17,106 nucleotides of DNA, taken from Phycisphaerae bacterium SG8_4. GTDB taxonomy: Bacteria > Planctomycetota > Phycisphaerae > Sedimentisphaerales > Anaerobacaceae. The first letter of the stretch is position 1. Every line of letters begins with the position of its first letter. Positions 212 through 17,070 of the stretch are shown here, piece after piece. Both the position numbers and the translations under genes were made by a program. The stretch lies in the NCBI GenBank assembly GCA_001303465.1, contig LJTR01000041.1:1-17106 (forward strand), given 5' to 3'. The notes under the pieces are model-generated. The model was given only the letters and a program-made list of their open reading frames with translations, made no database searches and was not told the DNA's origin.

Positions 212-604
212 GAGGATCCGCCGATAGTGTCTCTGCCCGTGCTGCGATTCCCGCGGACAAGCAGGCCGAGCCAAAAGATAAAGGTACGCCGGCCGATCGC
301 CCCTTTTGCATATCCAATATCTCCACAGGACGCCTTGCGGCGGAACAAGGAAGATCCAATGTCGAAGTGTGGGGATGACGCACGTGGACCGATTTGCGCA
401 TTCGCAGGTCTTCCTTCTACAATACTTCTGAACTCATCATTCACCAGTCGACATTTGATATTGCACCACGTCAAACAAACAAGGAAGCTTCAATGGTTTA
501 GTCACCCACTTTTGAAACCTTGCCGAAAGGCGCAGAACTTGAAAAGATGAGGGGAACTGGCTATTATCACAGACATCCGAGAAATGATTTACAGGAGATT
601 GGCC

Positions 605-1738
605 ATGAGATCGAGGCAGTTCGGACTGTGGATCTTGGCGGGCCCGGGCGCAGGGGATCAGTCACTTCTACGCCGAGCGTGGTGCGCCCGTGCCGTAGTG
701 ATTCTATCTGTGCTGGTGATCCTCTCGGTATTTTCGGCGACTGCAACTTGTGGTCCTCCTTATCCACCCAGCACGGTTATCCGAAAGATGATCTGGGCTC
801 CGGCCAACACGATTATTCGTAAGGCGGCCGGCGGCGATAACTGGCCGATTACCTGGGCGGATGATGATGCGATATACACCACATGGGGAGACGGCTGGGG
901 CTTCGAGCCCAAGGTGCCGAAGAAGCTCAGCTTGGGATTCGCCCGTATCGTCGGGACACCCGGAGATTTTGTTGGCACGAATATCCGGTCGCCAGCCGAG
1001 CAATCCGGCGGCGGGCGTTCCGGGCGAAAGGGCTGGGGTATTATCTCGATCGATGGTATGCTGTATCTACTGATGGGGCACGCCGATCGACAGGGCGGTC
1101 AAACCCAACTGGCCTGGTCTGGCGATTATGCTCGAACGTGGACGTTCGCGAACTGGCGATTCCCGCAATTTGGCCTGGTAGGATTTGTGAACTACGGCAA
1201 GGATTACGAAGGGGCTCGGGACAATTACGTGTATGCTTATTCGCATGACGGGCCATTGGCCGATACGCCTGCGGATCGCTTTATAATCATGCGCGTACCA
1301 AAGGACCGAATCACCGAACAAGGATTCTGGGAATTCTTTGAACGAGCAGACCAGGCCGGCAACGCAGTCTGGTCGCGTGACTTCAAACGCCGCGGAGGGG
1401 TTTTCAGTCATGCCGACTGTTGCCTTCGCTCTGCCATTACCTATAGTGCGCCGCTGCGTCGTTACCTTTGGTGGCAACAGATCCCGGCACCGAAGGGCAG
1501 TGCCGATCGCGGTGACACCAGGTTCGAAGGTGGTTTTGCCGTATACGATGCACCGCAGCCCTGGGGCCCCTGGTCCACAGCCTTCTACACTGAAGCTTGG
1601 GATGTCGGCCCCGGAGAGCACGGTGACTTTCCGGCCAAGTGGATGAGTGCCGACGGACGCGAACTCTACCTGGTGTTTTCCGGTGACGATTCCTTCAGCG
1701 TCCGAAGGGCAACTCTCGTTCTAACTCGAGAGGAGTGA
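605..1738 (+). CDS. Secreted or membrane-anchored hypothetical protein with an Asp-box (BNR-like) motif; possible beta-propeller (sialidase-like fold).
   Basis: The 384-aa ORF runs 584..1738. The ATG at 605 (MRSRQFGLW...) is preferred because AGGAG lies 7 nt upstream at 596-600. The N-terminus has a basic stretch followed by a hydrophobic helix (AVVILSVLVILSVFSATA). The motif SGDYARTW matches the Asp-box consensus S-x-D-x-G-x-T-W. The protein is rich in W, G and D (WADDDAIYTTWGDGWGF). It is much longer than the competing antisense ORF 1067..1621. Confidence 0.55.
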   Translation: MRSRQFGLWILAGPGAGDQSLLRRAWCARAVVILSVLVILSVFSATATCGPPYPPSTVIRKMIWAPANTIIRKAAGGDNWPITWADDDAIYTTWGDGWGFEPKVPKKLSLGFARIVGTPGDFVGTNIRSPAEQSGGGRSGRKGWGIISIDGMLYLLMGHADRQGGQTQLAWSGDYARTWTFANWRFPQFGLVGFVNYGKDYEGARDNYVYAYSHDGPLADTPADRFIIMRVPKDRITEQGFWEFFERADQAGNAVWSRDFKRRGGVFSHADCCLRSAITYSAPLRRYLWWQQIPAPKGSADRGDTRFEGGFAVYDAPQPWGPWSTAFYTEAWDVGPGEHGDFPAKWMSADGRELYLVFSGDDSFSVRRATLVLTREE

Positions 1739-1756: not shown

Positions 1757-2440
1757 TCAGCCGCCCTGAATCTTTCGCTTCATCTCATCCAGACGTCGAT
1801 CAACCTCGGCATCCGATTCAAGAACTTTCACACGTTCGTATGGAAAGCTGATTCCCAGCGTCCGCGTTATCTCGTCTGTGATCTCTATTTCGGCCTCCGC
1901 CTCATCGACCTTGGCTTCCATCCTTGCAACCATATCAAGGATGCTTTTGCCGGCGCCGCCTGAGAAGCTGTCCAATTTCTCATTGAGCGACAGCTCTCTT
2001 CTGATTTCCCTGCTTCTCTTTACAATATCATTCTGCTTGAGCTTCAGCTCTTTAAGGCTTTGCCGCAGTTGCTTGCGCGCCTGGGTGGCGGAATTGTAAG
2101 CCGATTCTGAAGTAGCAAGATCGTTTCTGCACTTGTTCACTTGCCTTTCCGCCTGGATTTGGGCTGCGATTGCTTGCCTGGCAGTATCCATTTCGTTGGC
2201 TTTCACCGCCAAGACGGCACCCTCTTTAAACCGAACAATCTTTCCCAATCCGGCATCCAATCTTCTGCGATCGCCTTTGACTGCCGAAAGGGCTTTTGCC
2301 TCCGCTCGGGCTGCTTCCCTGACCTTCTCTTCCATTTCCCTCATCAATTGAGGCAGGATCATTTCAGGCTCTTCCAGAGAAGCGAGAAATGCTTCGATCC
2401 GTGATTTTGTTATGGCTCTTAACCGACTTATGCGTCCCAT
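1757..2440 (-). CDS. pspA: PspA/IM30/Vipp1-family protein, paralog 1 (ESCRT-III superfamily).
   Basis: The N-terminus MGRISRLRAITKSRIEAFLASLEEPEMILPQLMREMEEKVREA matches the canonical PspA start (compare E. coli PspA [27 protein letters not shown]...). The protein is helical and coiled-coil rich (AIAAQIQAERQ...). An alternative TTG start at 2473 would overlap the upstream TGA by TTGA. Confidence 0.85.
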   Translation of the reverse strand: MGRISRLRAITKSRIEAFLASLEEPEMILPQLMREMEEKVREAARAEAKALSAVKGDRRRLDAGLGKIVRFKEGAVLAVKANEMDTARQAIAAQIQAERQVNKCRNDLATSESAYNSATQARKQLRQSLKELKLKQNDIVKRSREIRRELSLNEKLDSFSGGAGKSILDMVARMEAKVDEAEAEIEITDEITRTLGISFPYERVKVLESDAEVDRRLDEMKRKIQGG

Positions 2441-2469
2441 GTGTGGTGGTCGCTCGATTGGAGTCGACC

Positions 2470-5400
2470 TCAATTTGCCTTCTTTGGTTTCGCCGGACTA
2501 CTTGTCTTCTTTGTCACCTTCGCCTTGACCTGCCGTCTTTTTTCTTTCGACGCCAGAGGTTCCTTTTCGGGCTCATACTTGCTCTTCAGGACGTCGATCA
2601 ATTTTTTGTAGCCTTTGACCATCGCCTCAAAGCGTTCCATCAAATCGGCGATGACCTTTTGCTTACTCTTCTTCTCCTCATGCGACATCGGCAAGAGCCA
2701 GGTCTCCATGGCTCTGAATTGTTCTTCCAGAACAGACGTCAGCATATTGATGTCTTTCTGAGCCTTCAGCTCGATCGCCGTCTTGGGCACCTTGGATTGC
2801 TCGGCTCGCTGAAGTTTCATTTCGTCGATCATCTCCGACATTCTGCTGAGAACCTGTTGACCGACCTCTCTGAATGCATCCCTCGTCGGTTCTGCGTGCT
2901 CAGCTTCCTTCTTGCTCCTGATATCTGAAATCCCGTCGGCGATAACATCCTTCAAAGATTCCAGCCCGGCGCTAAAGGCGTTCAATTGCCGAATTACCTT
3001 ACCGACATTATCTTCAGCATCGCCGCCCAGCAGAAGATTCCTTGCGAACGTCTTCTTTATGTCTTGCCAGCGTTGAGCCTGCTCGGGCGTCAATCTGCCG
3101 GTGAGCTCTCTGAACTTGAGTAGATTTGACTCGGTGCCTGTGGTAAGCGTTTGAGCATCCTGCTCGTAGGTTGAATAGATCAGGTTCCACAACTCCTGGT
3201 CGTTCATAATCGGCAGGACTCTGCCGGCAATGCGGTTCATGTTTCGATAAGATCCCTGGAGCAGGAATGGCGGCTCGGTCCTGTATTGCTCTGATTGTCC
3301 GGCGGACAGTATGTACTGGCGATTCACCTTCAGGACGACATCGCGGACCACGTAGAGCTTTTTCATTGTGGAGAGATGTTCGTCGAGTTCCTCTGCCGAG
3401 TAGCTGTCCTCAAATTCTATGCCCTCCTGCTGTCCTGTCTCTGCGACGCGCATTATCATGTACACATCGTTCTGGCTTCGACGAGCGAGCTTTTCGAGAA
3501 CAGGGTTCGAGGTCAGGCAGTTCTCAATATAGCTTGCGACGAATTGATCATAGTTGTCGCCGACAATGTCACCGATGTTGTAGACGTCCGCTCTGTTAGC
3601 AAGCATGTCAGGTATCCTGAATCTCTCGCCGCTTTCGGTGTAGGGGTTGCCGGCCATGACGACGCAGACACGCTTGCCGCGCAGATCGTAAGTCTTCGAG
3701 CGCCCTTTGTAGACACCTTCGACCTTTCTCTGGGCGTCGCAGAGCGAAATGAATTTCTGCAGGAATTCTGGGTTTGTGTGCTGAATATCATCGACATAGA
3801 TCATCACGTTATCGCCCATCTCGAAGGCCAGGTTGAGCTTCTTGAGCTCTTGCCTCGATGCGGCATTGGGGGCCTCGTCAGGATCGACGGACGAAACCCT
3901 ATTGCCCACGGCCGGGCCGTTTATCTTGATGAAAGTCAAGCCGAGACGATTGGCAACATATTCCATAAGCGTTGTCTTGCCGTAGCCTGGGGGAGAGATC
4001 AAGAGCAGCAGCCCCTGCCGGTCGGTTCTCTTGTCCTGGCCTTCGCCGCCGATCTGTTTGGCGAGGTTGTCGCCGATCAAAGGCAGATATATCTGGTCGA
4101 TTAGCTTGTTTCGGACAAACGTCGTGAGCACGCGAGGTTGAAATTCTTCGAGATGCAGCTCGTGACTGTAGGTTTCGACCAGTTCGTTCCTGCATCTCTG
4201 ATACTGGTGAAATTTCGGCGCAAACTCCTCATCGTGGCGCCGGAGCTTCTTCATAAAGTGGCAGTAGTTCAGGTCATAGAGCCCATTGCTTATCAACGCA
4301 TGAGTGCCGAGCATCTCGGCGATTTGACGCTCAGTGCTCTCTTCGAGGGCGGCGTCGGACGAGTTTGGCGGCAGAAGCAGCGCCGCAGCTTCATCGGCAT
4401 ATTCGATTCTCGATGCATCGCCGGCGCGCAGAACATACGAGTGTACCCAGTCGCGCAACAGTCTGTAATTGCCCGCGGGATCCGCCGAGACCGCATCGAG
4501 TGAGTTGGTGAATCTGGTGCTGTAATTCTTCTGCTCTATGTGGGATTCAAAGTCGTCTTTTAGGGCGACTGCACACGGATCGATAATGAATTTGTCATCG
4601 CCTGCAAGTTCGTAGAACAAATATTCAGCCGCCTCGTCGATCAAATCAGCATCGAACAGAGCCGTCGTCTCCACAAATTCGGATAGAGAGTCCGCGATTT
4701 GCTCAACATAATTCTCTTGTTTGTCGCTGCCGCCGAACAATTCACCGGCTTGCCCCATGCTCTTAATCTTGGCGTTCAGCAGTTGTTTGCCTTCGTTGTT
4801 CTCGCTCAATTTCCAGAAAACCGTCCCAAGGGCTCTCGCCTGCGTGGAGTACTTCAAAAGGCCAATCCTGCTCCTGAGGTCAACCAGGGCCTTCAGTATT
4901 CTTGCGGCATCGCAGTCGTGCACGCCTTTTACGTAGCCCTCATCATACCGAGGCCCCATATATGCCTGAACTCGACTTAAGACAGCGTCTAGATCCGATG
5001 TTTGAACAAACTCGAGTTCCTCGCAAGCGGCCTCGATCTGGCGGAAGAGCTTGTAGGCAAGATACTCGGCCCTGTAAACATCATTCGTCTCAGAGACGAT
5101 ATTGGAATCCCAGACGTCTCTCGTTTCGTTCAATCGTTCATCGTCTATCCGTTCAAAAAATCCGGTGCCTGTCAGATGAAAATACATATCGTCTTCTTTG
5201 CGGACGATCGTGCCCTCCAGATCCTGACGATTGACCGCAAAACGCTGATTGCCGAGGCGAATGATGTTCTCTCCATCCTCGTAGAGGGCCTGCCTGTCCT
5301 TAAGCTGCCTTATGGAGTCCTGATGTATCGTCTTGAGCTTGCTCTTGAGATCCTCGGCCTTTACGTTGTCGCCGAGGTCGATCAACTGCTGGATAGTCTG

Positions 5401-7827
5401 ACGGATCCTGTCGATCATCAGGTCACCAGCAAAATACCCGTTTATCTCATCTATAGCCGTAAAGCTCTGAATCCGGTTCTGTATGCCTTTTAGAATCCTC
5501 TCCGCCGATGCCATCAGGGCCGATGCCCGCTGGTTGTGCTCGGCTACCAGTTGCACTTTTCTCGACTCAAAGGCATTGTATAATTGCTCTCTCTTTTCAG
5601 CAAGTTGCACAATGAATTGCTCAAAATCCGCGAACTTGCTCTCTAGTGTTTCGAGTTGAACCGTTACCTTCGTAAGATACTCATCGCATTTCTCAGGCGT
5701 GTTGCAGATGTCGAGATAATTGATGACCGACTGGCCAATCAGTTTTAACTGGGAACTGAATTCTGCCTGTCCCTCAATCCTCCCCAGCTCGTTAAGCTTG
5801 TTCTTCAGCGAGGATTTGACCTGATTGACCTGAGAGTAGACCAGCGAAATATTGTCGATAATCGCTATCGTTTCCGTCGCATCGGCAATCTTAAGATTGC
5901 TGACTATGTCTGTCAGCATTTCCAGTTCGTTCGCGGTCTTTTCCACTTCGGATTCGAGTTCTTTTGCCTCGGCAGCCTTGGATACCTGCGGCACCTTCTC
6001 GCCACTGCATTTGATGCTCTCTCGATAGGGATCCAACGACTGGGCTGTAAGAAGAAATTCCGCGCACATCTCCGAGAGCTTGTCGGTATGCTCGGCGACC
6101 TCCTTCTCCAGCGACTCAACGGCCTCGACGTCGGCATACTGCAGGTCTTTGAGCGATATCACTTCGCCCCGCGTGGCGCGCAGCTTCGTCAGGTGCTCGA
6201 CAAATTGATCTATATCGTCTAACTGCTCGTAGTCTATATCGCCGATCATCTCGCGCAAGTTTCGGGCAGTCTCTTCTATTCGCAGGCTGGTATTGCGCTT
6301 GGTCCTAACGACCTTTTCGAATTCATCGACGGCGGCACTTGCGGCCTCGTTTATCTGAGCCAACGGCTGCGACAGAACGAAGGTATCCTTTGAGGCGATC
6401 CAAAAATAGCTGTCTTGAATCTCCTCAGCCTTCTTCGCAACCTCGAGGTACAGGCCCGAATAGACTTCTTCCCGGTCCACGAGATTCATCAGCTCATGGC
6501 ATTCAGCCATGCAGGTGACGATATCTTTGTTGCCGATCTTATAGAGTTCCGAGTCACTCTTAACCGGTATCGAGAAATCCGGGCCATAGTAGGGGGTCTG
6601 CCATATCTGTATGGCATGATGCTTTTTTGCCTCCTCGTCCGCCCTGAAATAGATCAGAGTGCCATCGTCAAAAAACGAATAGCCATTGCACAGGACCGGC
6701 GGGCTGGCCTGTTGTTCGATTATGTTGTACGAAAGGAGAATATAAACGCCGCTGTCGCGATTGTAGAAAATGTACAAGTAATCCTCTCCGTTGGGAGAGG
6801 CGATGCGCTTTTCAAATACCATATCCTCCATTTGGGTCTCAAATTGCTTCAGCGCACCAGTTTGCAGATAATAACCTCTCGGGAAAACAATGCCGTGGTC
6901 TTCCGGGAGCAATACACACGAGTCTTTGATAGCATCGAGCCGCAGCGCTTTCTGCAACTTCTCATTGTAAAGGATGTAGCGAAACTGCCGTTCCTGGTAG
7001 GGCCGGATTTTCATCAGGATAACGTTGCCGACCACGGCATAATAGATCTCGGCGTCATTGAGTGTCTGATCAGGATCATCCACCGGTTCGCAGTAGATTC
7101 CCTCGCCCGTCTCTGTGTTGTCCTCGATCTTTACCGTCAGGTCCCCGCCGATGGTCTCCACAAATACTCTGTCTTCGATTGAAGCGTGCGGATTCCTACC
7201 GCTTCGATGCATGTCCTGAGTCACGCGCCTCCATTCGAATTCGTGCTGCGGTGGAAATACATATTCGTGGTCACTGCGGTTGTCGAGATACTGTATGCTG
7301 TCTTCTCTGATCAACCACTTGAAAGTCTTAACGTCCGAAACGCTCTTTCCGACACGGAACACCATGAACAAATGATTTCCTATGACGGCAAACTTCACAA
7401 ACCTCGTGAGCCTGTAGAACTTGTAGAGATGTTGGAAGTCCTCCTCGAATCGACGGTCAGTGATCAGATCCAGCGCGCAGGGCACAAACGTGCCGTCTTT
7501 CCATTCGTAGACCGAGAAAACATCCTCAAGCGTGGTCTCAGTCCTGAGCCCGATAAACACGTTGTAGCCGAAAATGAACTTGTCAGCGACCGGAACCACA
7601 TCTCGCGGGACGCAGTTGTTCCTGGTGGATATTCTCTTGCTTGACAGGAGTCTGCTTTCGACCGCGCCAAAGACGTCTTTTCTGGCATTGTTGAGTCTCT
7701 GCAGTCTCTGCAGAAGCTCTTTGCTGTGGGCTTTGAGCCGGTTGGTGATTATCTCGTAGGTGCCGCCCTGCAGTTGGACCTTGTCCTGACTTTCGCCCCT
7801 GGCATTGTTCGGGTCGTTCTCTGCCAT
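2470..7827 (-). CDS. Giant (1785 aa) multidomain AAA+ P-loop ATPase of unknown function, with long coiled-coil regions and a Lys-rich C-terminal tail.
   Basis: A single uninterrupted ORF with ATG at 7825-7827 and a GAGAGG Shine-Dalgarno-like element upstream. Walker A is LLLISPPGYGKTTLMEYV and Walker B is VMIYVDDIQH. A sensor-1-like VCVVMAGNP and an RFRIPDMLANRADVYNI segment follow, resembling the ...LPEALLDRFDV sensor region of MoxR/AAA_5 ATPases. A 400-500 residue central region rich in E, K, L and Q is predicted coiled coil. The C-terminus is basic (KEKRRQVKAKVTKKTSSPAKPKKAN). No TM segments are obvious. Confidence 0.8.
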   Translation of the reverse strand: MAENDPNNARGESQDKVQLQGGTYEIITNRLKAHSKELLQRLQRLNNARKDVFGAVESRLLSSKRISTRNNCVPRDVVPVADKFIFGYNVFIGLRTETTLEDVFSVYEWKDGTFVPCALDLITDRRFEEDFQHLYKFYRLTRFVKFAVIGNHLFMVFRVGKSVSDVKTFKWLIREDSIQYLDNRSDHEYVFPPQHEFEWRRVTQDMHRSGRNPHASIEDRVFVETIGGDLTVKIEDNTETGEGIYCEPVDDPDQTLNDAEIYYAVVGNVILMKIRPYQERQFRYILYNEKLQKALRLDAIKDSCVLLPEDHGIVFPRGYYLQTGALKQFETQMEDMVFEKRIASPNGEDYLYIFYNRDSGVYILLSYNIIEQQASPPVLCNGYSFFDDGTLIYFRADEEAKKHHAIQIWQTPYYGPDFSIPVKSDSELYKIGNKDIVTCMAECHELMNLVDREEVYSGLYLEVAKKAEEIQDSYFWIASKDTFVLSQPLAQINEAASAAVDEFEKVVRTKRNTSLRIEETARNLREMIGDIDYEQLDDIDQFVEHLTKLRATRGEVISLKDLQYADVEAVESLEKEVAEHTDKLSEMCAEFLLTAQSLDPYRESIKCSGEKVPQVSKAAEAKELESEVEKTANELEMLTDIVSNLKIADATETIAIIDNISLVYSQVNQVKSSLKNKLNELGRIEGQAEFSSQLKLIGQSVINYLDICNTPEKCDEYLTKVTVQLETLESKFADFEQFIVQLAEKREQLYNAFESRKVQLVAEHNQRASALMASAERILKGIQNRIQSFTAIDEINGYFAGDLMIDRIRQTIQQLIDLGDNVKAEDLKSKLKTIHQDSIRQLKDRQALYEDGENIIRLGNQRFAVNRQDLEGTIVRKEDDMYFHLTGTGFFERIDDERLNETRDVWDSNIVSETNDVYRAEYLAYKLFRQIEAACEELEFVQTSDLDAVLSRVQAYMGPRYDEGYVKGVHDCDAARILKALVDLRSRIGLLKYSTQARALGTVFWKLSENNEGKQLLNAKIKSMGQAGELFGGSDKQENYVEQIADSLSEFVETTALFDADLIDEAAEYLFYELAGDDKFIIDPCAVALKDDFESHIEQKNYSTRFTNSLDAVSADPAGNYRLLRDWVHSYVLRAGDASRIEYADEAAALLLPPNSSDAALEESTERQIAEMLGTHALISNGLYDLNYCHFMKKLRRHDEEFAPKFHQYQRCRNELVETYSHELHLEEFQPRVLTTFVRNKLIDQIYLPLIGDNLAKQIGGEGQDKRTDRQGLLLLISPPGYGKTTLMEYVANRLGLTFIKINGPAVGNRVSSVDPDEAPNAASRQELKKLNLAFEMGDNVMIYVDDIQHTNPEFLQKFISLCDAQRKVEGVYKGRSKTYDLRGKRVCVVMAGNPYTESGERFRIPDMLANRADVYNIGDIVGDNYDQFVASYIENCLTSNPVLEKLARRSQNDVYMIMRVAETGQQEGIEFEDSYSAEELDEHLSTMKKLYVVRDVVLKVNRQYILSAGQSEQYRTEPPFLLQGSYRNMNRIAGRVLPIMNDQELWNLIYSTYEQDAQTLTTGTESNLLKFRELTGRLTPEQAQRWQDIKKTFARNLLLGGDAEDNVGKVIRQLNAFSAGLESLKDVIADGISDIRSKKEAEHAEPTRDAFREVGQQVLSRMSEMIDEMKLQRAEQSKVPKTAIELKAQKDINMLTSVLEEQFRAMETWLLPMSHEEKKSKQKVIADLMERFEAMVKGYKKLIDVLKSKYEPEKEPLASKEKRRQVKAKVTKKTSSPAKPKKAN

Positions 7828-7916: not shown

Positions 7917-9905
7917 TTACAGCCCCAGTTCCTTGACGGGCTTGTTCGCCATGCCAAGATCCTTGACGGTACTCAGCAGGTTGCTCAAAACGCCCTTGTT
8001 CTCTTTGTCGGATTTTGCTATCAGTTTGGCAACCAACGCTGAAATTGTAAGGTTCTTAATGTCTTCGGACTTCAATCCGAACTGAGAGACAAACCGTCTG
8101 ATCTGCTGTGCTGTGGTCTGCTCATCGGAGCCGATCAGGCTTTCCTTGAGATCGGTCAGCACGCCACTGTTGTTGACCGCTCTGTCCACACTCTTGCCGG
8201 TCGTTATGGCATTGACCAGCCGTTCGAAGAACTGGTTCTCGCCGCCAATGATTTCGATGTTGGCCGCCTTGAGTGCTTCAGCCACTATCTTGGCCTGCTC
8301 GGCCGCAATCTCTTTCCTGATGTTTATTTCAGCAAGTTCGATTTCCAGGTCCTTGTTGAGTCGCAGTTTGAATTCCTCGTGCTCTTTTCCGACTGCGTCA
8401 AATATCTTCATGGCCTCGGCCTTATCTCGGATGCCGTCGGCGTCGGCATGGTACTTCAACTCGAGGACCTTTGCTTCGGCAGTACCCTCCTTCTCAAGTG
8501 CAACAGCCTTTGCCTCCATCACTTCGGCCTCCGCCGTGCCCGCAACGGCATGTTCTTTCACAGAAGCCAGCGCGAGTGACTTCTTTGCCGCGGCGTTCTT
8601 CTCCGCCGCCTTGAGATTCGCATCGGCATCTATCAGTTTCTGTTCGGCGTAGAATTCCTCGGCCTTCTTCGCAGCCTCTGCGGCTTTGATGTCTTTGACG
8701 AGTGCCTGCTCGGCTTCTTCCTCGGCCTTTGTGATCTGTACGCTCTTGTGACGTTCGGCGGTCGCAAACTCCCGCGTATCCTTGATCTTCTCTTCCTCTG
8801 TCACGACGGTCTTCTCAACCATCACCCTCTCGCGGATGACAGCCTGCAGCTCCTTTTTCTCCGCCTCGACCGCTTTTTCCTTGTCGACCTGAGCTATCGA
8901 CACTACGCGTTCTCGCTCGGTGGCCTCCAACCCTCTGTCTCGCTCGACTCGCTCCAGTTCGATGGCGTCCGTACGCTCCTTGTTTCTTGTGGCGACGATA
9001 ACCTGCCGCTGCTTGTTTTGCTCGGCAACGAAGATTTCTTCCTCGGCGCTTATTCTAGCCTTCTCCGCCTTCTCTCGCTCGGCCTCCTGGACCCTCTTCG
9101 TCTCGGCCTCTTCTCTGGCCTGAATCGAGGCGATTTCGCGTTTCTGTTTTGCATCCGCCTCGGCCAGTTGCTTGTTAAGCTCAAGTATCGCTTCGTCGGC
9201 CTCTACGTTCTGTTGTGTGATGGTCTTGTCTTTTTCACGCTCGCGATCATTGGCCAGCTCATACTGTTCGGCGGTCAGCACAGTAATCTTCTTGATACCC
9301 TCGGCATCGAGGATGTTGTCGGGATTAAGCAGCTTCTTGTCAGTCTGCTCGAGGTAGTCGATGGCCGCATCCTCGAGGACATAGCCGCTCAGGTCGGTTC
9401 CAATCACTTCGAGTATCTGCTCTCGGAACCGCACACGGTCGGTATACAGTTCGACGAAGTCAAACTGCTTGCCGACTGTCTTGAGGGCTTCGGAGAACTT
9501 CGCATCGAACAGCTCGACCAATGCCTGGCGGTCGGAGGCTCTCTCACAACCCAGCGACTGAGCGACCTTGATTACGTCTTCGACCGTGTTATTGACCCGA
9601 ACAAAGAATGCGACCACGATATCCGCGCGAAGATTGTCTTTGCAGACAAGACCCTGCACGGCGCGCCGGTCGATCTCGATCCGCTTGACCGATACATCCA
9701 TGTATTCGACGCGGTGCATTATCGGTATTACGAACTTGCCTGAAAAGCTGACCTGAGTTCCGCCGACACCGTTTCGAATCAGGGCCTGCCCTTGCGACAC
9801 CTTCTTGTAACACTTGAGAAGTAAAGCAAAGAAGCCCGTGCCGACGATGGCTAAGACAACTACAGCTACAATGAATAATTCTTGTGCAAATGCAAGCATG
9901 GTCAT
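7917..9905 (-). CDS. Flotillin-like SPFH/band-7 protein (YqiK/FloT-like), 662 aa.
   Basis: N-terminal membrane hairpin LFIVAVVVLAIVGTGFFALLL. An SPFH-like region follows (GGTQVSFSGKFVIPIMHRVEYMDVSVKRIEIDRRAVQGLVCKDNLRADIVVAFFVRV). Then comes a very long Glu/Ala/Lys-rich coiled coil (EAEKKELQAVIRERV..., AEEEAEQALVKDIKAAEAAKKAEE) typical of flotillins. The ATG at 9903-9905 overlaps the NfeD stop TGA (ATGA). The ATG at 9897-9899 (third residue) has better spacing from the GGAG. Confidence 0.9.
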   Translation of the reverse strand: MTMLAFAQELFIVAVVVLAIVGTGFFALLLKCYKKVSQGQALIRNGVGGTQVSFSGKFVIPIMHRVEYMDVSVKRIEIDRRAVQGLVCKDNLRADIVVAFFVRVNNTVEDVIKVAQSLGCERASDRQALVELFDAKFSEALKTVGKQFDFVELYTDRVRFREQILEVIGTDLSGYVLEDAAIDYLEQTDKKLLNPDNILDAEGIKKITVLTAEQYELANDREREKDKTITQQNVEADEAILELNKQLAEADAKQKREIASIQAREEAETKRVQEAEREKAEKARISAEEEIFVAEQNKQRQVIVATRNKERTDAIELERVERDRGLEATERERVVSIAQVDKEKAVEAEKKELQAVIRERVMVEKTVVTEEEKIKDTREFATAERHKSVQITKAEEEAEQALVKDIKAAEAAKKAEEFYAEQKLIDADANLKAAEKNAAAKKSLALASVKEHAVAGTAEAEVMEAKAVALEKEGTAEAKVLELKYHADADGIRDKAEAMKIFDAVGKEHEEFKLRLNKDLEIELAEINIRKEIAAEQAKIVAEALKAANIEIIGGENQFFERLVNAITTGKSVDRAVNNSGVLTDLKESLIGSDEQTTAQQIRRFVSQFGLKSEDIKNLTISALVAKLIAKSDKENKGVLSNLLSTVKDLGMANKPVKELGL

Positions 9906-10588
9906 TTCTCCAATTCTAACGGTGCAATTGTATATGTTCCCTTTTCATTGTCCTTTCCAACTATCACCGCCTCATCGCCCTTGTGAAATACGTGCGCACC
10001 GTCTGAAATCACGTTAAGAACAATGGGGGCTCCCTTGGTCTTGACTTCGGCTTGCCCCATCTTGTCTGAAACCGAGGTTGTCACGACAGTGCAAATGCGA
10101 CCTATGACTTTCCTTGGGGCGTTGTAGTCCTTGTTGAACATTTCGTAGACTTTCTTAAGCGGCATGGCAAAGATCCTGCAAATAAAAAGACTCGCTACTA
10201 AGCTTATCGCGTATACCGGCACGGCGAGAAGTAATGAACTGCCCGGATTGAAGTAATGGTTGCCGAACATGCACAGCATCCACATACTCAGGATCAGAAT
10301 GCTGGACAGCAGCATGATCGGCACCTCGCCGACATAGAAGAAATGCATGATCGAACGCAGAACGCCGTGCTGACTCATATCAAGGTCGAGGTCGCCCTCC
10401 GCATCGACATCGACATCCACGTCAACGTCGCCGCCCGCCTCAAGGCCGGAATCGAAGAGTTCAACATCAAGAAAGTCAACATCCAGCGCACCCAGAATGA
10501 CGGTGATCCAGTAAATCACGTTCAGGATCAAGAGAACCGTCACAACTGCGTTTACCGGCGAAAAGGCAGTTTGGATCAAGTCAATCAT
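9902..10588 (-). CDS. NfeD/YqiJ-like membrane protein (228 aa); the usual partner of SPFH/flotillin proteins.
   Basis: Three predicted TM helices (VVTVLLILNVIYWITVILGAL, IMLLSSILILSMWMLCMFG, LLLAVPVYAISLVASLFICRIFA) and a C-terminal soluble beta-rich domain (GRICTVVTTSVSDKMGQAEVKTKGAPIVLNVISDGAHVFHKGDEAVIVGKDNEKGTYTIAPLE) resembling the NfeD OB-fold. It lies immediately upstream of flotillin, the same gene order as yqiJ-yqiK and yuaF-floT. It contains an acidic (DV)n stretch. Coordinates are taken from the ORF track. Confidence 0.75.
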   Translation of the reverse strand: MIDLIQTAFSPVNAVVTVLLILNVIYWITVILGALDVDFLDVELFDSGLEAGGDVDVDVDVDAEGDLDLDMSQHGVLRSIMHFFYVGEVPIMLLSSILILSMWMLCMFGNHYFNPGSSLLLAVPVYAISLVASLFICRIFAMPLKKVYEMFNKDYNAPRKVIGRICTVVTTSVSDKMGQAEVKTKGAPIVLNVISDGAHVFHKGDEAVIVGKDNEKGTYTIAPLELEK

Positions 10589-10606: not shown

Positions 10607-11281
10607 CTACTGCTGCTTCTCCTCCAGCAGGTCCTTCATCGCCTCTAACTCGGCCTCAACCTGCAGGTCTCTGGATCTCTCGGCAAGTTGAATATCGGTC
10701 AGGGCGTCACTGTGGATTTCCTGCCGTATCTCCACTTCCGCTTCGGTCTGCAGGACTTCATCTTCAAGGCGATCGAAAGCGACCCCTTCTCCACTCACTG
10801 CCGCCGTTTTGTCTAAATGTTGTTCGAAGGCGTTCTGAGCTTCCGCGACTCTCTTTCTCGCTCTCAGATCCTGCAGTTTCAATTTCGCAGCCTTTAACTG
10901 CTCCTGCAGCTTCACGATGTTGTCACGCAAAACATCGTATGTCTTGCAGCCGTGTTCGACGCCCGGTTGAATCTGGCTGATCCGCTCGGCGAGCTTGACT
11001 TTTTCAGTCAGGGCCTTGCGAGCCGCCTCTTCGTCGCCCGCCTTGAGGGCTCTCTCGGCCTTGGCCTTCAACTCATCCTGTTGGGCCTTGAGCTGCTCAA
11101 GCTCTCGTTGCATGCGCTTGAATGTCGCCCCGTATGATGCGGCACTCTCGCGACCTTCCAGCACGGTCTCCTCAAGCTCTTTGATCTTTGACTCAAGTTC
11201 TTGTTCTGGAGGTTCGACCTTGTCCAGAAGCCAGTTTATGTTGGCTTTTGTGATTCTTCGCATTCTATCGAATATGGACAT
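10607..11281 (-). CDS. pspA: PspA/IM30-family protein, paralog 2, the one closest to canonical PspA.
   Basis: MSIFDRMRRITKANINWLLDKVEPPEQELESKIKELEE closely parallels the E. coli PspA N-terminus. GAGGAG lies 8 nt upstream of the ATG. The protein is all helical coiled coil and ends ...LLEEKQQ. Confidence 0.9.
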   Translation of the reverse strand: MSIFDRMRRITKANINWLLDKVEPPEQELESKIKELEETVLEGRESAASYGATFKRMQRELEQLKAQQDELKAKAERALKAGDEEAARKALTEKVKLAERISQIQPGVEHGCKTYDVLRDNIVKLQEQLKAAKLKLQDLRARKRVAEAQNAFEQHLDKTAAVSGEGVAFDRLEDEVLQTEAEVEIRQEIHSDALTDIQLAERSRDLQVEAELEAMKDLLEEKQQ

Positions 11282-11371: not shown

Positions 11372-12070
11372 CTATTGCCCGCCGCCTTCTGTCTCACCAG
11401 CCTTTTGCCTAAGTTCGGCCAGACGTCTGTCAATTTCTGCCTCGTTGCTCAATTCCTGAAGTCTCTTCTCCAATGAGGCGCTCGCCGTCCCCTCGCCCGT
11501 GAAGCTTGCCTGGATTTCAAGCTCCGCCTCGGCCTCTTCGATTTTGGCTTCCAGTCGTGCGACTGCGTCAAGAATGCTGTCACCGGAACCGACCGTGCCA
11601 GAAACAGTGCTCTGGATCTTCTTCTGAACCTTGGCGACTCTTGCGCGGGTCAGTATCTCCTCCTTTTTGGTGCGAAGCTCTGCGAGCTGCTCCTGGATCC
11701 TCTTGCGTGACAGCGTCGCCCGCTCAAGAGAGCCTTGGGCTATTTCAAGATTCTTTTGTGAGAAGTCTGAAGCACGCTCTGCCTGAATCTGGGCATCGAG
11801 AGCCTGTCGGGCGGTCTCCTCATCACCCTTCTGCAGCGCCATGTAGGCACCGTCTCCGTACTTGTCGATCGTAGCCTTGTGCTTCTGGACTTCGCGTTCG
11901 GAATGCTTGACTGTCGCGGTGGCTTTGGCTTCGGCCTCGGTGGCAGCTTCGAGCTGTTCTTCCATCTCCTTGACCAAAACAGGAAAAACAAGCTCAGGAT
12001 CTTCAAATCTGCTTAGAAATGCCTCAATCTTACCTACGGTGACGCGGTGCAAACGTGTGAAAAGTCCCAT
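11372..12070 (-). CDS. pspA: PspA/IM30-family protein, paralog 3 (232 aa from the preferred start).
   Basis: MGLFTRLHRVTVGKIEAFLSRFEDPELVFPVLVKEMEEQLEAATEAEAKA...QKGDEETARQALDAQIQAE. The start at 12070 is preferred over the ORF-track 12094 because AGGAG lies 6 nt upstream and the N-terminus is then canonical. It is more similar to paralog 1 than to paralog 2. Confidence 0.9.
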   Translation of the reverse strand: MGLFTRLHRVTVGKIEAFLSRFEDPELVFPVLVKEMEEQLEAATEAEAKATATVKHSEREVQKHKATIDKYGDGAYMALQKGDEETARQALDAQIQAERASDFSQKNLEIAQGSLERATLSRKRIQEQLAELRTKKEEILTRARVAKVQKKIQSTVSGTVGSGDSILDAVARLEAKIEEAEAELEIQASFTGEGTASASLEKRLQELSNEAEIDRRLAELRQKAGETEGGGQ

Positions 12071-12120
12071 TGCTCTCTCCTTTCCGGCTTCCACTAAAGT
12101 ATTTAGAGAATTACCGACGA

Positions 12121-14335: not shown

Positions 14336-15097
14336 CTATGTCATCTGATCCACAGTCTGTGCGGCCTTGTCCACAACATTCATGAATCTACTATAAAGCT
14401 CCTCTGCGTCTTTTGGCGGTAATGAGGTGTCACGATCACGCAGATCGCTGACATCTCGGAGCGTGCCGGCATCGAGATCAAGTTTCTCAGCCGCAACATC
14501 GACAATCTCGTCTCTCGAAGGTAAATCCTGCCCAGTGAGAGATACGACCACACGCAGCGTTTCAAGAAGACCACCAATTGCCCGCGACATCATCTGGGTC
14601 AGCGCCCGGCCACTTGCCATTATGTAATGCCGGCGCATACGAAGCAGAAGGTTCTTGATCTGCTGCTCGCATCGCAAGCGCAGGTGCTCGCGACCGATCT
14701 TGAGGTTTCCGAGCAGATCCGAACCTGACAGCACTCTGTACGATTCCTGCATGGCAAGGAATTTAACTGGAAACACATCTGCCGATGAACGCAGATTCAT
14801 CTCGGTGATGAAGAAGGGGGCAATGCCGTGACGGCGTCCTCGCAAAACCGGATCCAGTACCTTCTTCAGGATAGGCACGTCAATGCGCTCAAGAACGACG
14901 AGAATATTGATGTCACTCTTGCCCGGCCTGTAGTCGTTGCGGGCAGCACTCCCGTAAAGACAGATGCACTTGACGTCAATATCTGATATGTCACTTAGAG
15001 TACGACAGAGTGCTGTAAGTGAGTCCTTCTCTTGTTCTGAGAGCTTTGTTCCCGACAGGTCACTTGGTTCGTTCATTTTGTTTCCCTTCACAATCAC
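14336..15097 (-). CDS. Polbeta-superfamily nucleotidyltransferase, about 246-253 aa, similar in size and architecture to KNTase/ANT(4') (N-terminal NTase domain plus C-terminal helical domain).
   Basis: The NTase motif is hG[GS]x9-13Dh[DE]h: CICLYGSAARNDYRPGKSDINILVVL. Candidate starts are GTG at 15097, 10 nt after the radical-SAM stop, or ATG at 15076 with AAGGGAAA upstream. It is co-directional with, and tightly spaced after, the radical-SAM gene. Confidence 0.8.
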   Translation of the reverse strand: MIVKGNKMNEPSDLSGTKLSEQEKDSLTALCRTLSDISDIDVKCICLYGSAARNDYRPGKSDINILVVLERIDVPILKKVLDPVLRGRRHGIAPFFITEMNLRSSADVFPVKFLAMQESYRVLSGSDLLGNLKIGREHLRLRCEQQIKNLLLRMRRHYIMASGRALTQMMSRAIGGLLETLRVVVSLTGQDLPSRDEIVDVAAEKLDLDAGTLRDVSDLRDRDTSLPPKDAEELYSRFMNVVDKAAQTVDQMT

Positions 15098-15106
15098 GTG
15101 AGCATA

Positions 15107-16168
15107 TTACTTTTTGACCAATTGGCTGTACACGGATCTTTTGCTGACGCCACCTCGGGAGCCACCCTCTGATCTTCTTTTGATATGCGCCAACAACCCG
15201 GATCGGCCTTGAACGGATCGCCGCTCGTTGCGTAGGAGAGACACTTTAGACAAGAGGTCACTGTGGTAGTATAGTTCAGCGAGCGGCGTTTCGGTGAGGT
15301 TCCCCACACGAATCGGCATGCGACGACATGGGTAGAGGTCGCCGTTAGCCTGGACCGTCAGAAGTGAATCGCCGGCAGTGCAGTGATAGGGTCTGCCGCC
15401 TGCCACGAGGAACTGAAGGGCCCGGTGCATTGCGATTTCGGTTCTCCCGAACCAGCGGCGCCTCGCCTGATTGCGGGCCTTGAGCATAGTCTCGAAGAAC
15501 TCTCGTGTTTCATCGGGCGTGAGCATCTGCTCGTGCAAACTCGAGCCGCTCCCTGTAGGGATGAGCCGGTCAGCCCAGAGGCGTGAGATTCTGAGCTTGC
15601 TTGCCAGCCGGGCAACCTCGGCAAACTCCCGGAAGTTGTCACGATGGGCCGTAAACGAGATGAAGGTTTCGATGCGCTCTGCCCTCAGAGATCTCACCGC
15701 CGCAACTGTTCGATCAAAGTTGCCTGGCCCGCGAATTCTGTCATGCGTTTCATGCGTACCTTCGATGCTCACCTGCACAAAGGCCGGGCCCAATCTGCGC
15801 AGCCGTCTGGCCATAACTGTATCGATGAAGCTCCCATTGGTGAGGATTGCAAAGCTGAAGTTCTCTCGCTTGGCCGCGAAAACCTCAAGCAAATCCAGAA
15901 AGTCCCGGCGAATAAAGGGCTCACCGCCGGTTACAGTCACATGTCCTCGAACCCGGCGTCCGCAGTCCTGTCTCCATGATTTCAGCAGATCAGTGAACTG
16001 ATCCAACACTTTGAGCAACTGCTTGAATCCGAGTTCAAGGCCGGCGTACTTGTCCTGGTAGCAGTGGGCGCACCTGAGGTTACATTGCTCAGTCAGGTGC
16101 CATTGAAGCAGCAATCCCGGCGGCACGTATCGCTCTTGACAACATATCCTCACTGTTTCCGTACTCAT
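15107..16168 (-). CDS. Radical SAM enzyme with a C-terminal twitch/partial-SPASM auxiliary-cluster motif; a putative peptide-maturase.
   Basis: The true start is ATG at 16166-16168 (MSTETVRICCQERY...), preceded by GGAGGA 9 nt upstream. CX3CX2C is CNLRCAHCY, followed by GGEPF. The C-terminal motif is CTAGDSLLTVQANGDLYPC (CX13GX4C). The ORF-track N-terminal extension MRGRLWRRRWLWRRW... is an alternate-frame reading of the upstream gene's GGC-rich tail and is not real. Confidence 0.9.
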   Translation of the reverse strand: MSTETVRICCQERYVPPGLLLQWHLTEQCNLRCAHCYQDKYAGLELGFKQLLKVLDQFTDLLKSWRQDCGRRVRGHVTVTGGEPFIRRDFLDLLEVFAAKRENFSFAILTNGSFIDTVMARRLRRLGPAFVQVSIEGTHETHDRIRGPGNFDRTVAAVRSLRAERIETFISFTAHRDNFREFAEVARLASKLRISRLWADRLIPTGSGSSLHEQMLTPDETREFFETMLKARNQARRRWFGRTEIAMHRALQFLVAGGRPYHCTAGDSLLTVQANGDLYPCRRMPIRVGNLTETPLAELYYHSDLLSKVSLLRNERRSVQGRSGLLAHIKRRSEGGSRGGVSKRSVYSQLVKK

Positions 16169-16173
16169 CAGGA

Positions 16174-17070
16174 CTATCCTCCACAACCACCACATCCGCC
16201 ACAGCCGCCGCCACCACAGCCACCGCCACCGCCGCCACAGCCACCTCCTCCTCCACAGCCGCCCCCGCAACCTCCATCGAAGTGACCACTGTGTCTGTCG
16301 GTCGCCGAAAGAACCGCCGTGCCAAAGATCGCGACGGAGAAGACAGGATTAACTTCGGAACTTCTCCAGAACCAATCGTGAGAGGTCGGCCTTCTTGGGC
16401 GGCCAAAGTGCCCTTTGAGGGCCTTGAGATAGCGACGTCCCAGTCGGGTCAGTTCAGTCCAGGGTTTCAAGGTAGCACACAGTACGATCAATGAAACGGG
16501 CAGCAGAACGGCGAGAAAGGTCGAAGGTTTTTGGCGTGTAATTCCCAGGTAGAGCTTCGTTCCTCCCACGGCCCCAATCACCAGAGCCGCGGCCAGCGCG
16601 ATCGCCCATGCCCGAGTCCTCTGGGCAGCGGTTCGCGTCAGATTCAGATCTGCAAATTCCTTATTGGTCGGTTCGAGCAGCCGTTCAATTGTCTCCTGAA
16701 GACCGGCAATGCGGGATACGGCTTGCGGGCTTGTCGATTTCTGCAGGCATTCGTAGACCGCCTTTTCAAAAGGATTCAAGAGCACTCTTCGCGCCGGTGC
16801 ATTTGTGGCCTCAAGTTCATCGTTGTAGATCTCGATTATCTTGCGGTCGCGCAGACTGAAGGCTGCGGTCTGGATCACTGCGGCCGGCCCTCCGCGCAGT
16901 GCCGCAATGGCAAATGGGTCAAAGCGGGCCAGATCCGGAAGAGGGCAGGAACCGGTACCGTCTGCATTGACGCACGCCCAGCTGCCGGCGATGCAGACAG
17001 CCGACAGGCCTGTAAAAACCAACAGAAAGGTCGGTCCCGGAATTCTCTTGAGCATCTCCACGGGCAGCAC
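16174..17070 (-). CDS. Polytopic membrane protein (at least 293 aa) with a C-terminal Gly/Cys low-complexity tail. It is possibly 5'-partial because the frame is still open at the window edge.
   Basis: Hydrophobic helices: TFLLVFTGLSAVCIAGSWA, AWAIALAAALVIGAVGG, FLAVLLPVSLIVLCATL, VFSVAIFGTAVLSA. The tail is HFDGGCGGGCGGGGGCGGGGGGCGGGGCGGCGGCGG, with stop TAG at 16174-16176. The ATG at 17055 (MLKRIPGP...) gives a signal or TM-like N-terminus. The GTG at 17070 is the ORF-track start. No in-frame stop occurs upstream through 17106. Confidence 0.8.
   Translation of the reverse strand: MLPVEMLKRIPGPTFLLVFTGLSAVCIAGSWACVNADGTGSCPLPDLARFDPFAIAALRGGPAAVIQTAAFSLRDRKIIEIYNDELEATNAPARRVLLNPFEKAVYECLQKSTSPQAVSRIAGLQETIERLLEPTNKEFADLNLTRTAAQRTRAWAIALAAALVIGAVGGTKLYLGITRQKPSTFLAVLLPVSLIVLCATLKPWTELTRLGRRYLKALKGHFGRPRRPTSHDWFWRSSEVNPVFSVAIFGTAVLSATDRHSGHFDGGCGGGCGGGGGCGGGGGGCGGGGCGGCGGCGG
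16177..16275. repeat. Imperfect (GGN/TGY)n low-complexity tract encoding the Gly/Cys tail. It causes spurious Pro-rich (+ strand) and Trp/Arg-rich (- strand) ORFs in the other frames.
   Basis: The tract ccacaaccaccacatccgccacagccgccgccaccacagccaccgccaccgccgccacagccacctcctcctccacagccgcccccgcaacctcc uses mixed Gly codons (GGA, GGT, GGC, GGG) and both Cys codons (TGT, TGC). The protein sequence is therefore conserved without the DNA being a pure microsatellite. Confidence 0.7.

Follow-up and report, generated by a model that had tools for sequence, protein, structure and literature searches.

A DUF3686-family AAA+ ATPase encoded with flotillin, YqiJ/NfeD-like and PspA genes in Phycisphaerae bacterium SG8_4: a candidate partner of bacterial membrane scaffolds

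Introduction

Does a large ATPase that databases file under DNA repair act on DNA, or does it serve the membrane-associated proteins encoded beside it? The question is raised by Phycisphaerae bacterium SG8_4, whose contig LJTR01000041.1 encodes an ATPase of 1785 amino acids (aa) in a six-gene cluster with flotillin, YqiJ/NfeD-like and PspA genes. We analyzed 17,106 nucleotides (nt) of this contig, referred to here as the window; residue numbers are those of the ATPase unless another protein is named. An earlier reading made from the DNA letters and their translations (the sequence-only reading) had proposed an ATPase of unusual architecture with a link to the membrane. The protein proves to be an ordinary member of a large, widespread, Pfam-indexed family with a fixed layout. 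The analysis supports a cytoplasm-facing scaffold, made of flotillin and an NfeD-like protein, as its constant genetic partner, with PspA as a frequent addition. We rate as roughly even the chance that the ATPase is the energy-consuming partner of this flotillin/YqiJ-NfeD-like membrane scaffold, and sometimes of PspA, acting as a remodeller or assembly factor.

Results

Family membership and distribution

The coding sequence occupies positions 2470..7827 on the minus strand and carries its stop codon at 2470-2472, according to the open reading frame (ORF) list and translation. It is a real gene, as first read: the frame opens with ATG, and M1 does not vary among 101 aligned homologs. Pfam DUF3686 (PF12458) matches residues 37-475 at 621 bits (E 1e-186, model positions 1-448 of 448) and DUF7902 (PF25472) matches residues 597-679 at 86.6 bits (E 1e-24). 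The AAA model scores 32.6 bits (E 1e-7), and weak AAA, AAA_22 and AAA_5 matches span 1264-1397. The N-terminal region that the sequence-only reading had left anonymous is in fact DUF3686 followed by DUF7902, and the architecture it had called unusual is the standard layout of a large Pfam family described by Ravi et al. 2024 (PMC11237479).

A word-indexed search with the ATPase returned 5274 homologs with the same domain set. Those listed carry DUF3686 and DUF7902, nearly all have AAA or AAA_5 as well, and their lengths are about 1600-1900 aa. The nearest belong to genomes of Planctomycetota, Phycisphaerae and Sedimentisphaerales, and source records call the homologs 'DNA repair ATPase' or 'MoxR-like ATPase'. 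Members of the DUF3686-AAA+ family occur in at least five phyla, PA3728 of Pseudomonas aeruginosa being one of them. An exhaustive search restricted to the N-terminal beta-propeller region (described below) gave 733 clusters at 50% identity, of which 259 reach E 1e-30 or better. Every full-length match (about 1600-1930 aa) has the propeller at its N-terminus, and the shorter matches look like fragments. Searches seeded with flavobacterial and Pseudomonas members recovered many cultured hosts, including P. aeruginosa.

Full-length relatives with 37-51% identity were also found by tblastn on plasmid records of Hymenobacter, P. fluorescens (pQBR103, 38.7% identical to the window ATPase), Proteus mirabilis, Streptomyces, Nonomuraea, Deinococcus, Photobacterium, Halomonas and Vibrio. 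Three of these 'plasmid' records are chromosome-sized at 4-12 Mb (Proteus mirabilis, 4.1 Mb, twice; Nonomuraea, 11.9 Mb). The family was missing from the viral contigs searched.

Catalytic module

The nucleotide-binding motifs lie in a single MoxR/CbbQ/NorQ-type AAA+ module, assigned by motifs and fold to residues 1264-1630 (2938..4038, minus strand). A Pfam scan confirms that this is the only P-loop module and that about 1260 residues lie before it, as the sequence-only reading had claimed; its boundaries for the module, 1290-1450, were too narrow. The motifs it had named are present where they were placed: GYGKTT at 1281-1286, within the Walker A stretch SPPGYGKTT encoded at 3970-3996; the DD of YVDD at 1344-1347; AGNP at 1392-1395; and RFRIPDMLANRADV at 1402-1415. 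Walker B is D1346-D1347 and sensor-1 is N1394. No variation was seen at K1284, T1285, D1346, D1347, N1394, R1367, R1412, R1516 and R1528 across 83 sequences of 53-95% identity, so the ATPase site is under strong constraint. By analogy with MoxR motifs, R1412 is a candidate Arg finger and R1528 a candidate sensor-2 residue. The sequence evidence thus supports a catalytically intact module, predicted to be an active MoxR-class ATPase.

The earlier MoxR-like assignment holds by fold, the closest structures to the model being CbbQ and NorQ, both known MoxR members. By profile, AAA_5 reaches 22.6 bits against a cut-off of 22, a marginal match, the generic AAA model scores higher, and Pfam gives no AAA_3 match. 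In the model a hairpin at 1368-1381 precedes the sensor-1 strand, and a conserved loop with no predicted hairpin occupies the helix-2 position (1304-1321). Compared with CbbQ and NorQ, and by analogy RavA, the ATPase is 5-6 times longer, owing to the long region before the module. A stand-alone homolog of 597 aa in another locus (L060, 9794-11584) corresponds to residues 1062-1622 only, which is to say the linker and the AAA+ module.

Predicted architecture before the AAA+ module

Two AlphaFold2 (AF2) models were built from 101-sequence alignments, one of residues 1-1190 with a mean predicted local distance difference test score (pLDDT) of 84.3 and one of residues 1101-1785 with a mean of 82.4. 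The DUF3686 region (6403..7719, minus strand) is modelled as a helix at 21-53 and then a beta-propeller, in which residues 59-410 form about 28 strands with pLDDT mostly 85-93. Foldseek finds that this domain resembles beta-propellers at E 1e-5 to 1e-3, with matches to prolyl oligopeptidase, WD40, kelch and clathrin/IFT-A/Vps18.

The propeller is followed by a helical rod at residues 427-845 (5293..6549, minus strand), inside which lies DUF7902 (5791-6039, minus strand). Its helices are 20-58 residues long with short loops between them, and spectrin repeats are its best structural matches. The model therefore replaces the long SMC- or tether-like coiled coil proposed before with a series of spectrin-like bundles. 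Nor is the central region of low complexity: over 40-aa segments its entropy drops no further than 3.3 bits, where the median is 3.76, and the protein reaches its minimum of 3.27 in the C-terminal tail.

Residues 855-1260 (4048..5265, minus strand) comprise, by AF2 secondary structure, a small beta domain (855-893) and a helical linker domain (919-1260) that leads into the AAA+ module. Neither Pfam nor a PDB profile search gave a family or solved-structure match by sequence for this part, and the conservation profile is lowest at residues 1001-1200. Across the whole protein, PDB profile matches are confined to the Walker A region (p97, RuvB), from which it follows that no family member has a solved structure. 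The highest 19-aa hydropathy in a whole-protein scan is 1.14; no stretch is of transmembrane grade, and the ATPase is therefore soluble.

Conserved linkage to a membrane scaffold

The neighbourhood of the ATPase gene was compared across loci drawn from one metagenome scan (80) and from other look-ups (5), of which 43 with a full ATPase gene and at least 3.2 kb of upstream sequence were counted. The gene directly upstream of the ATPase encodes a flotillin in 39/43 loci, a YqiJ-like gene lies upstream of flotillin in 40/43, and both are found in 38/43. PspA is present in 15/43 and absent from 28/43. Annotated records show the same YqiJ-like/flotillin/ATPase triad in Pseudomonas, Proteus and Deinococcus; it also occurs in flavobacteria and, without PspA, in a Bacteroidia genome, while Streptomyces has flotillin and the ATPase. 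Close relatives of the window retain all six genes and differ in the genes that flank them. The link to the membrane that had been proposed is thus borne out by a conserved same-strand cluster, with a change of emphasis: the constant partner is flotillin with the NfeD-like protein, and PspA is optional.

Clustering of all other neighbours yielded a single further recurrent family, CesT_Tir_1, which was seen in flavobacterial loci. No client gene, effector gene or nuclease partner is conserved in the 43 neighbourhoods.

These results bear directly on the database label, under which the protein would be an SbcC/SMC-like DNA repair ATPase. The only points in its favour are source names ('DNA repair ATPase' and 'ATPase involved in DNA repair', the latter also the Pfam title of PF12458) and a basic C-terminal tail; no paper was found behind the label. 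The single C-terminal AAA+ P-loop is not a split ABC head, no SMC or SbcC family matches, the rod is spectrin-like and not an antiparallel coiled coil, and the neighbourhoods contain no nuclease partner. Since the ATPase gene nearly always follows the flotillin gene, a membrane role is likelier than DNA repair, which we regard as very improbable. An SbcC/SMC identity was rejected on the missing ABC head, nuclease partner and true long coiled coil. A candidate zinc hook, the C708-x5-C714 loop at a helix-hairpin apex, was also rejected, as C708 is Cys in only 33/66 homologs. The sequence-only reading had named in advance homologies that would count against it, such as an SbcC-like DNA repair ATPase or a midasin fragment; neither an SbcC/SMC head nor a midasin-like region was found.

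The same neighbourhoods inform a second alternative, in which the ATPase is a MoxR-like 'maturation factor' that unfolds, inserts cofactors into or assembles membrane-protein clients held in a flotillin microdomain. Its closest folds fit such a role, PDB entries describing CbbQ as a Rubisco activase and NorQ as a MoxR AAA+ ATPase, as do the CesT/Tir chaperone-like genes of flavobacterial and Pseudomonas operons and the 'chaperone-like' function in assembling membrane-linked complexes proposed by Ravi et al. (PMC11237479). The neighbourhoods hold neither a conserved client gene nor a VWA adaptor, and the linkage is specific to scaffold genes. We consider a client chaperone unlikely, if the least unlikely of the alternatives, and the same data do not distinguish it from a partner of the scaffold itself.

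Organization of the gene cluster in the window

All six cluster genes lie on the minus strand, closely packed or overlapping. A simple promoter and terminator scan, itself uninformative, found no intergenic terminator-like site in the cluster.

The gene directly upstream of the ATPase (7917..9905, minus strand) encodes a protein of 662 aa with an N-terminal membrane anchor. Pfam gave no match to it and phmmer found nothing in the PDB, but a profile of 28 orthologs aligns with E. coli YqiK at an hhalign probability of 100% (E 2.4e-39), which identifies it as a YqiK-type flotillin. Its residues 480-662 (window 7920-8468, minus strand) form a region of about 180 residues conserved among ATPase-linked flotillins, in which HEE 509-511 and GG 554-555 are invariant. 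E. coli YqiK, whose operon lacks an ATPase of this kind, shows no similarity to the region, which is a candidate docking element.

The flotillin start is overlapped by 4 nt by the stop of the preceding gene, which encodes a membrane protein of 228 aa (9902..10588, minus strand). Its YqiJ/NfeD-like assignment follows from a YqiJ_N score of 22.7 bits, just below the cut-off of 23, together with synteny in 40/43 loci, and is tentative because pairwise BLAST against E. coli YqiJ gives no significant match. One relative, on a 4.9-Mb contig, has an additional short Band_7 gene of 184 aa (L005, 7331-7885) between its YqiJ-like and flotillin genes, and the window has none. Two other loci show disturbed modules. 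The first looks decayed (L020, 7615-11773), with a shortened flotillin and an ATPase marked by an in-frame stop and large internal deletions; in the second, of flavobacterial type, the flotillin and ATPase genes are separated by an ORF with a GIY-YIG domain, which we read as a mobile endonuclease (L069, 6106-6534).

The remaining three genes encode PspA/IM30 paralogs. The first gene of the cluster (11372..12094, minus strand; Pfam E 4e-24) probably starts at 12070 (MGLFTRL..., 232 aa), the ORF start being too far upstream; the homolog in locus L003 also has 232 aa. The middle copy has 224 aa (10607..11281, minus strand; PspA_IM30, E 2e-30). The third, directly downstream of the ATPase gene (1757..2473, minus strand; Pfam E 2e-15), likewise has its ORF start too far upstream and probably begins at the ATG at 2440 (MGRISRL..., 227 aa). 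Both revised starts agree with gene lengths called in relatives. Homologs of the downstream copy, 195-229 aa long, occupy the same position in loci L003-L005 and were seen only in close relatives. The middle copy is 27-32% identical to the other two, which are 40% identical to each other. Identity to the PspA of the flavobacterial operon is only about 25% for the window PspAs, compared with about 50% for the ATPases and flotillins, and therefore different PspA types may have been recruited separately, which would strengthen the functional tie.

The PspA genes suggest a third alternative, a dedicated Vps4 analogue that disassembles or recycles PspA (bacterial ESCRT-III) polymers and for which flotillin/NfeD is merely a platform. 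Three PspA genes in one cluster, one of them directly downstream of the ATPase gene, would fit, as would the linkage of two distant PspA types to the module in different phyla and the reported apparent absence of a Vps4-like ATPase from bacteria (PMC7619361). Two of the PspA paralogs have C-termini that by eye resemble MIM1-type motifs, as candidate helices. Neither Pfam nor the AF2 model reveals an MIT domain in the ATPase, however, so the route through MIT-interacting motifs in the PspA C-termini, suggested earlier, has no basis. The flotillin-ATPase pair is kept without PspA in the 28 loci that lack it. A function dedicated to PspA appears doubtful, slightly more so than that of a client chaperone.

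C-terminal extension and basic tail

The conserved core of the ATPase stops near residue 1630, and homologs extend beyond it by 0 to about 230 aa. In the window the lineage-variable extension comprises residues 1631-1753 (2569..2937, minus strand), modelled as three long helices with pLDDT 63-76, and ends in a disordered basic tail at 1754-1785 (EKEPLASKEKRRQVKAKVTKKTSSPAKPKKAN; 2473..2568, minus strand), where pLDDT is below 50. The last 25 residues, KEKRRQVKAKVTKKTSSPAKPKKAN, have a net charge of +10, so that the basic tail described by the sequence-only reading is present, without being common to the family. At least 8 K/R in the last 30 residues were counted in 61/101 close homologs; among diverse loci, the tail occurs in 12/40 with the extension and in 0/35 without it. 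It is a lineage feature, lost in distant homologs.

A downstream PspA gene is found in 7/40 loci with the extension and in 0/35 without. A tie between the extension or basic tail and this PspA was nevertheless rejected, as all seven loci are close relatives and do not constitute independent evidence.

Other genes in the window

Convergent with the cluster is an ORF of 384 aa (584-1738, plus strand) without Pfam or NCBIfam match. Outside the conserved cluster, a nucleotidyltransferase-domain protein (14336-15097, minus strand) matches PADLOC PDC-S09 modestly, at E 5e-8 and over its N-terminal 50 residues only. A TIGR04222-domain membrane protein (16174..17070, minus strand; 114.8 bits) ends in a tail built solely of Gly and Cys (GGCGGGCGGGGGCGGGGGGCGGGGCGGCGGCGG), and its gene is directly followed by a radical SAM/SPASM maturase-like gene (15107..16270, minus strand); the two products may be a substrate/maturase pair. 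The W/R-rich N-terminus of the radical SAM ORF is probably the GGC repeat read in another frame, with the true start likely internal.

Discussion

Comparison with described operons

The PspA-flotillin-AAA+ operon type was previously described computationally by Ravi et al. 2024 (PMC11237479), who also noted that operons without PspA (flotillin, YqiJ and ATPase) are shorter and more widespread, and that a phospholipase D (PLD) gene lies downstream in some Proteobacteria. The window shares with this operon the ATPase family, the flotillin type, the YqiJ-like gene and the gene order YqiJ-like, flotillin, ATPase; the 'abbreviated operon' is the core recovered in 38/43 of our loci, and the full operon was recovered exactly in flavobacterial loci and also in P. 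aeruginosa. The family and the operon type are therefore known already. Specific to the window are the replacement of the CesT/Tir-PspA dyad by three PspA paralogs, of which two lie upstream and one lies downstream, with no CesT/Tir match among the scanned window ORFs, and the C-terminal extension of the ATPase with its basic tail. The AAA+ class, which the earlier paper did not give, is MoxR/CbbQ/NorQ-like by fold.

In P. aeruginosa, the family member P0393 (DUF3686, DUF7902 and AAA) is preceded by genes for DUF2170 (BacA), PspA (BacB), a 213-aa protein and a 688-aa flotillin-like protein (PaFlo3). Behind it come a PLD-family gene, yaeQ, recJ and a gene for a Peptidase_M4 protein, which we take, by the known order of genes, to be lasB. 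The arrangement identifies P0393 as PA3728, beside the bac cluster PA3732-PA3729. This 'biofilm-associated cluster' has been described in PMC10948618 and PMC13086221, where the experiments concern BacA, BacB and PaFlo3 and not the ATPase. The five genes PA3728-PA3732 go up together in a phage-infection transcriptome (PMC12041424) and in a mutant proteome (PMC13637947), in favour of a partnership between the ATPase and its neighbours. Unlike the window, the bac operon has DUF2170, one PspA and the downstream PLD-family gene; in one P. aeruginosa locus (L091, 13260-13952) this is a PLDc_2 gene of the HKD phospholipase D family, directly 3' of the PA3728 homolog, and the window has none.

A different combination is found on P. 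fluorescens SBW25 plasmid pQBR103 (L087, 1-12205). There the triad is joined on one strand to a PspA gene set (PspA, rhomboid, DUF2491, DUF350, DUF1190 and a glutathionylspermidine-synthase-like gene), a union of what Ravi et al. (PMC11237479) treat as two separate classes of PspA operon.

The P. aeruginosa data give rise to the last alternative, an accessory or defence module that stress or phage would set off, in which the propeller senses a signal and the NTPase triggers an effector, for example the PLD-family protein beside PA3728. PA3728-PA3732 are induced by phage infection (PMC12041424). A PLDc_2 gene directly downstream, copies on megaplasmids, the patchy occurrence of paFlo3 among pseudomonads (PMC13086221) and weak matches to nSTAND_NTPase5 and PADLOC mad8 point the same way. 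Phage induction of PspA is, however, a general envelope-stress response, three of the plasmid records are chromosome-sized, and the family has neither copies in viral contigs nor an effector gene conserved across loci. No cluster gene has a significant PADLOC 2023 match: the best for the ATPase are mad8 (E 2.6e-4) and IetA (8e-4), over the P-loop region only, and the flotillin and YqiJ-like protein have none. We think a defence function improbable, though less so than DNA repair.

Proposed function

We favour the ATPase as the motor of the scaffold encoded with it, and Ravi et al. (PMC11237479) arrived at a comparable prediction from gene context. It is a soluble cytoplasmic protein consisting of a beta-propeller, a spectrin-like rod, a linker domain and one MoxR-class AAA+ module. 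The AAA+ modules probably form a ring, as MoxR proteins do, from which the rods would present the propellers as arms gripping either the scaffold or the proteins it holds. By hydrolysing ATP, the ATPase would assemble, remodel or dismantle membrane-attached scaffold oligomers or attached polymers. In the Planctomycete-type lineage three PspA (ESCRT-III-like) paralogs have joined the module, and the ATPase has gained the C-terminal extension, whose basic tail may help it to stay at the acidic inner membrane surface.

There are precedents for such a design: a MoxR ring with docking arms is known from RavA with LdcI, and the pairing of an SPFH protein with an AAA+ enzyme from HflK/C with FtsH. 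The latter (cited in PMC13086221) likewise pairs an SPFH-family scaffold genetically or functionally with an AAA+ enzyme, but FtsH is a membrane-anchored classic-clade AAA protease, whereas the window ATPase is a soluble protein that lacks both a protease domain and a transmembrane segment. As in the Vps4/ESCRT-III system, an AAA+ gene stands beside ESCRT-III-superfamily (PspA) genes and polymer recycling is conceivable. The ATPase differs from Vps4 in belonging to another AAA+ clade, as had been noted from the sequence, and PspA is only an optional neighbour.

Several observations weigh against the favoured function. MoxR proteins usually act with a VWA/MIDAS-domain partner encoded nearby; departing from the MoxR family in this respect, the ATPase has no VWA match in the window by Pfam or among the recurrent neighbours of the loci. 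Its Walker B is DD in place of the usual DE. The stand-alone AAA-only homolog has no flotillin beside it, its neighbours being PorV, a histidine kinase and an AraC regulator. Patchy distribution and plasmid carriage would be compatible, too, with an accessory function in stress or defence. The partnership of ATPase and scaffold is deduced from gene linkage, physical interaction being a prediction. Deletion of the PaFlo3 flotillin in P. aeruginosa causes mild phenotypes only (PMC13086221). In the literature searched we found no experiment on any family member and no paper mentioning 'DUF3686'.

A more specific version of the proposal can be put forward tentatively, as possible but short of probable. 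The DUF3686 ATPase could be the missing energy supply of bacterial membrane-scaffold dynamics, a MoxR-built functional counterpart of Vps4 whose propeller arms pull subunits from flotillin/NfeD cages and co-encoded PspA polymers, and the three-PspA, basic-tail version in the window a specialised Planctomycetota-type membrane-remodelling machine.

Significance

According to a 2025 review, bacteria appear to lack a Vps4-like ATPase for PspA/Vipp1 polymers (PMC7619361), and our literature search turned up no account of any ATPase that works on bacterial flotillin cages. The DUF3686 family is the most consistent ATPase neighbour of flotillin that we found and a fair candidate for the ATPase still missing from bacterial flotillin/PspA dynamics. 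It occurs in hosts with genetic tools, among them P. aeruginosa (PA3728), Proteus mirabilis and cultured flavobacteria. The name 'DNA repair ATPase' is a mislabel carried in thousands of genomes. The window itself adds one more family member, in a PspA-rich variant. If the family does remodel flotillin or PspA assemblies, it would be the first dedicated motor of bacterial membrane microdomains, and a widespread annotation would be corrected.

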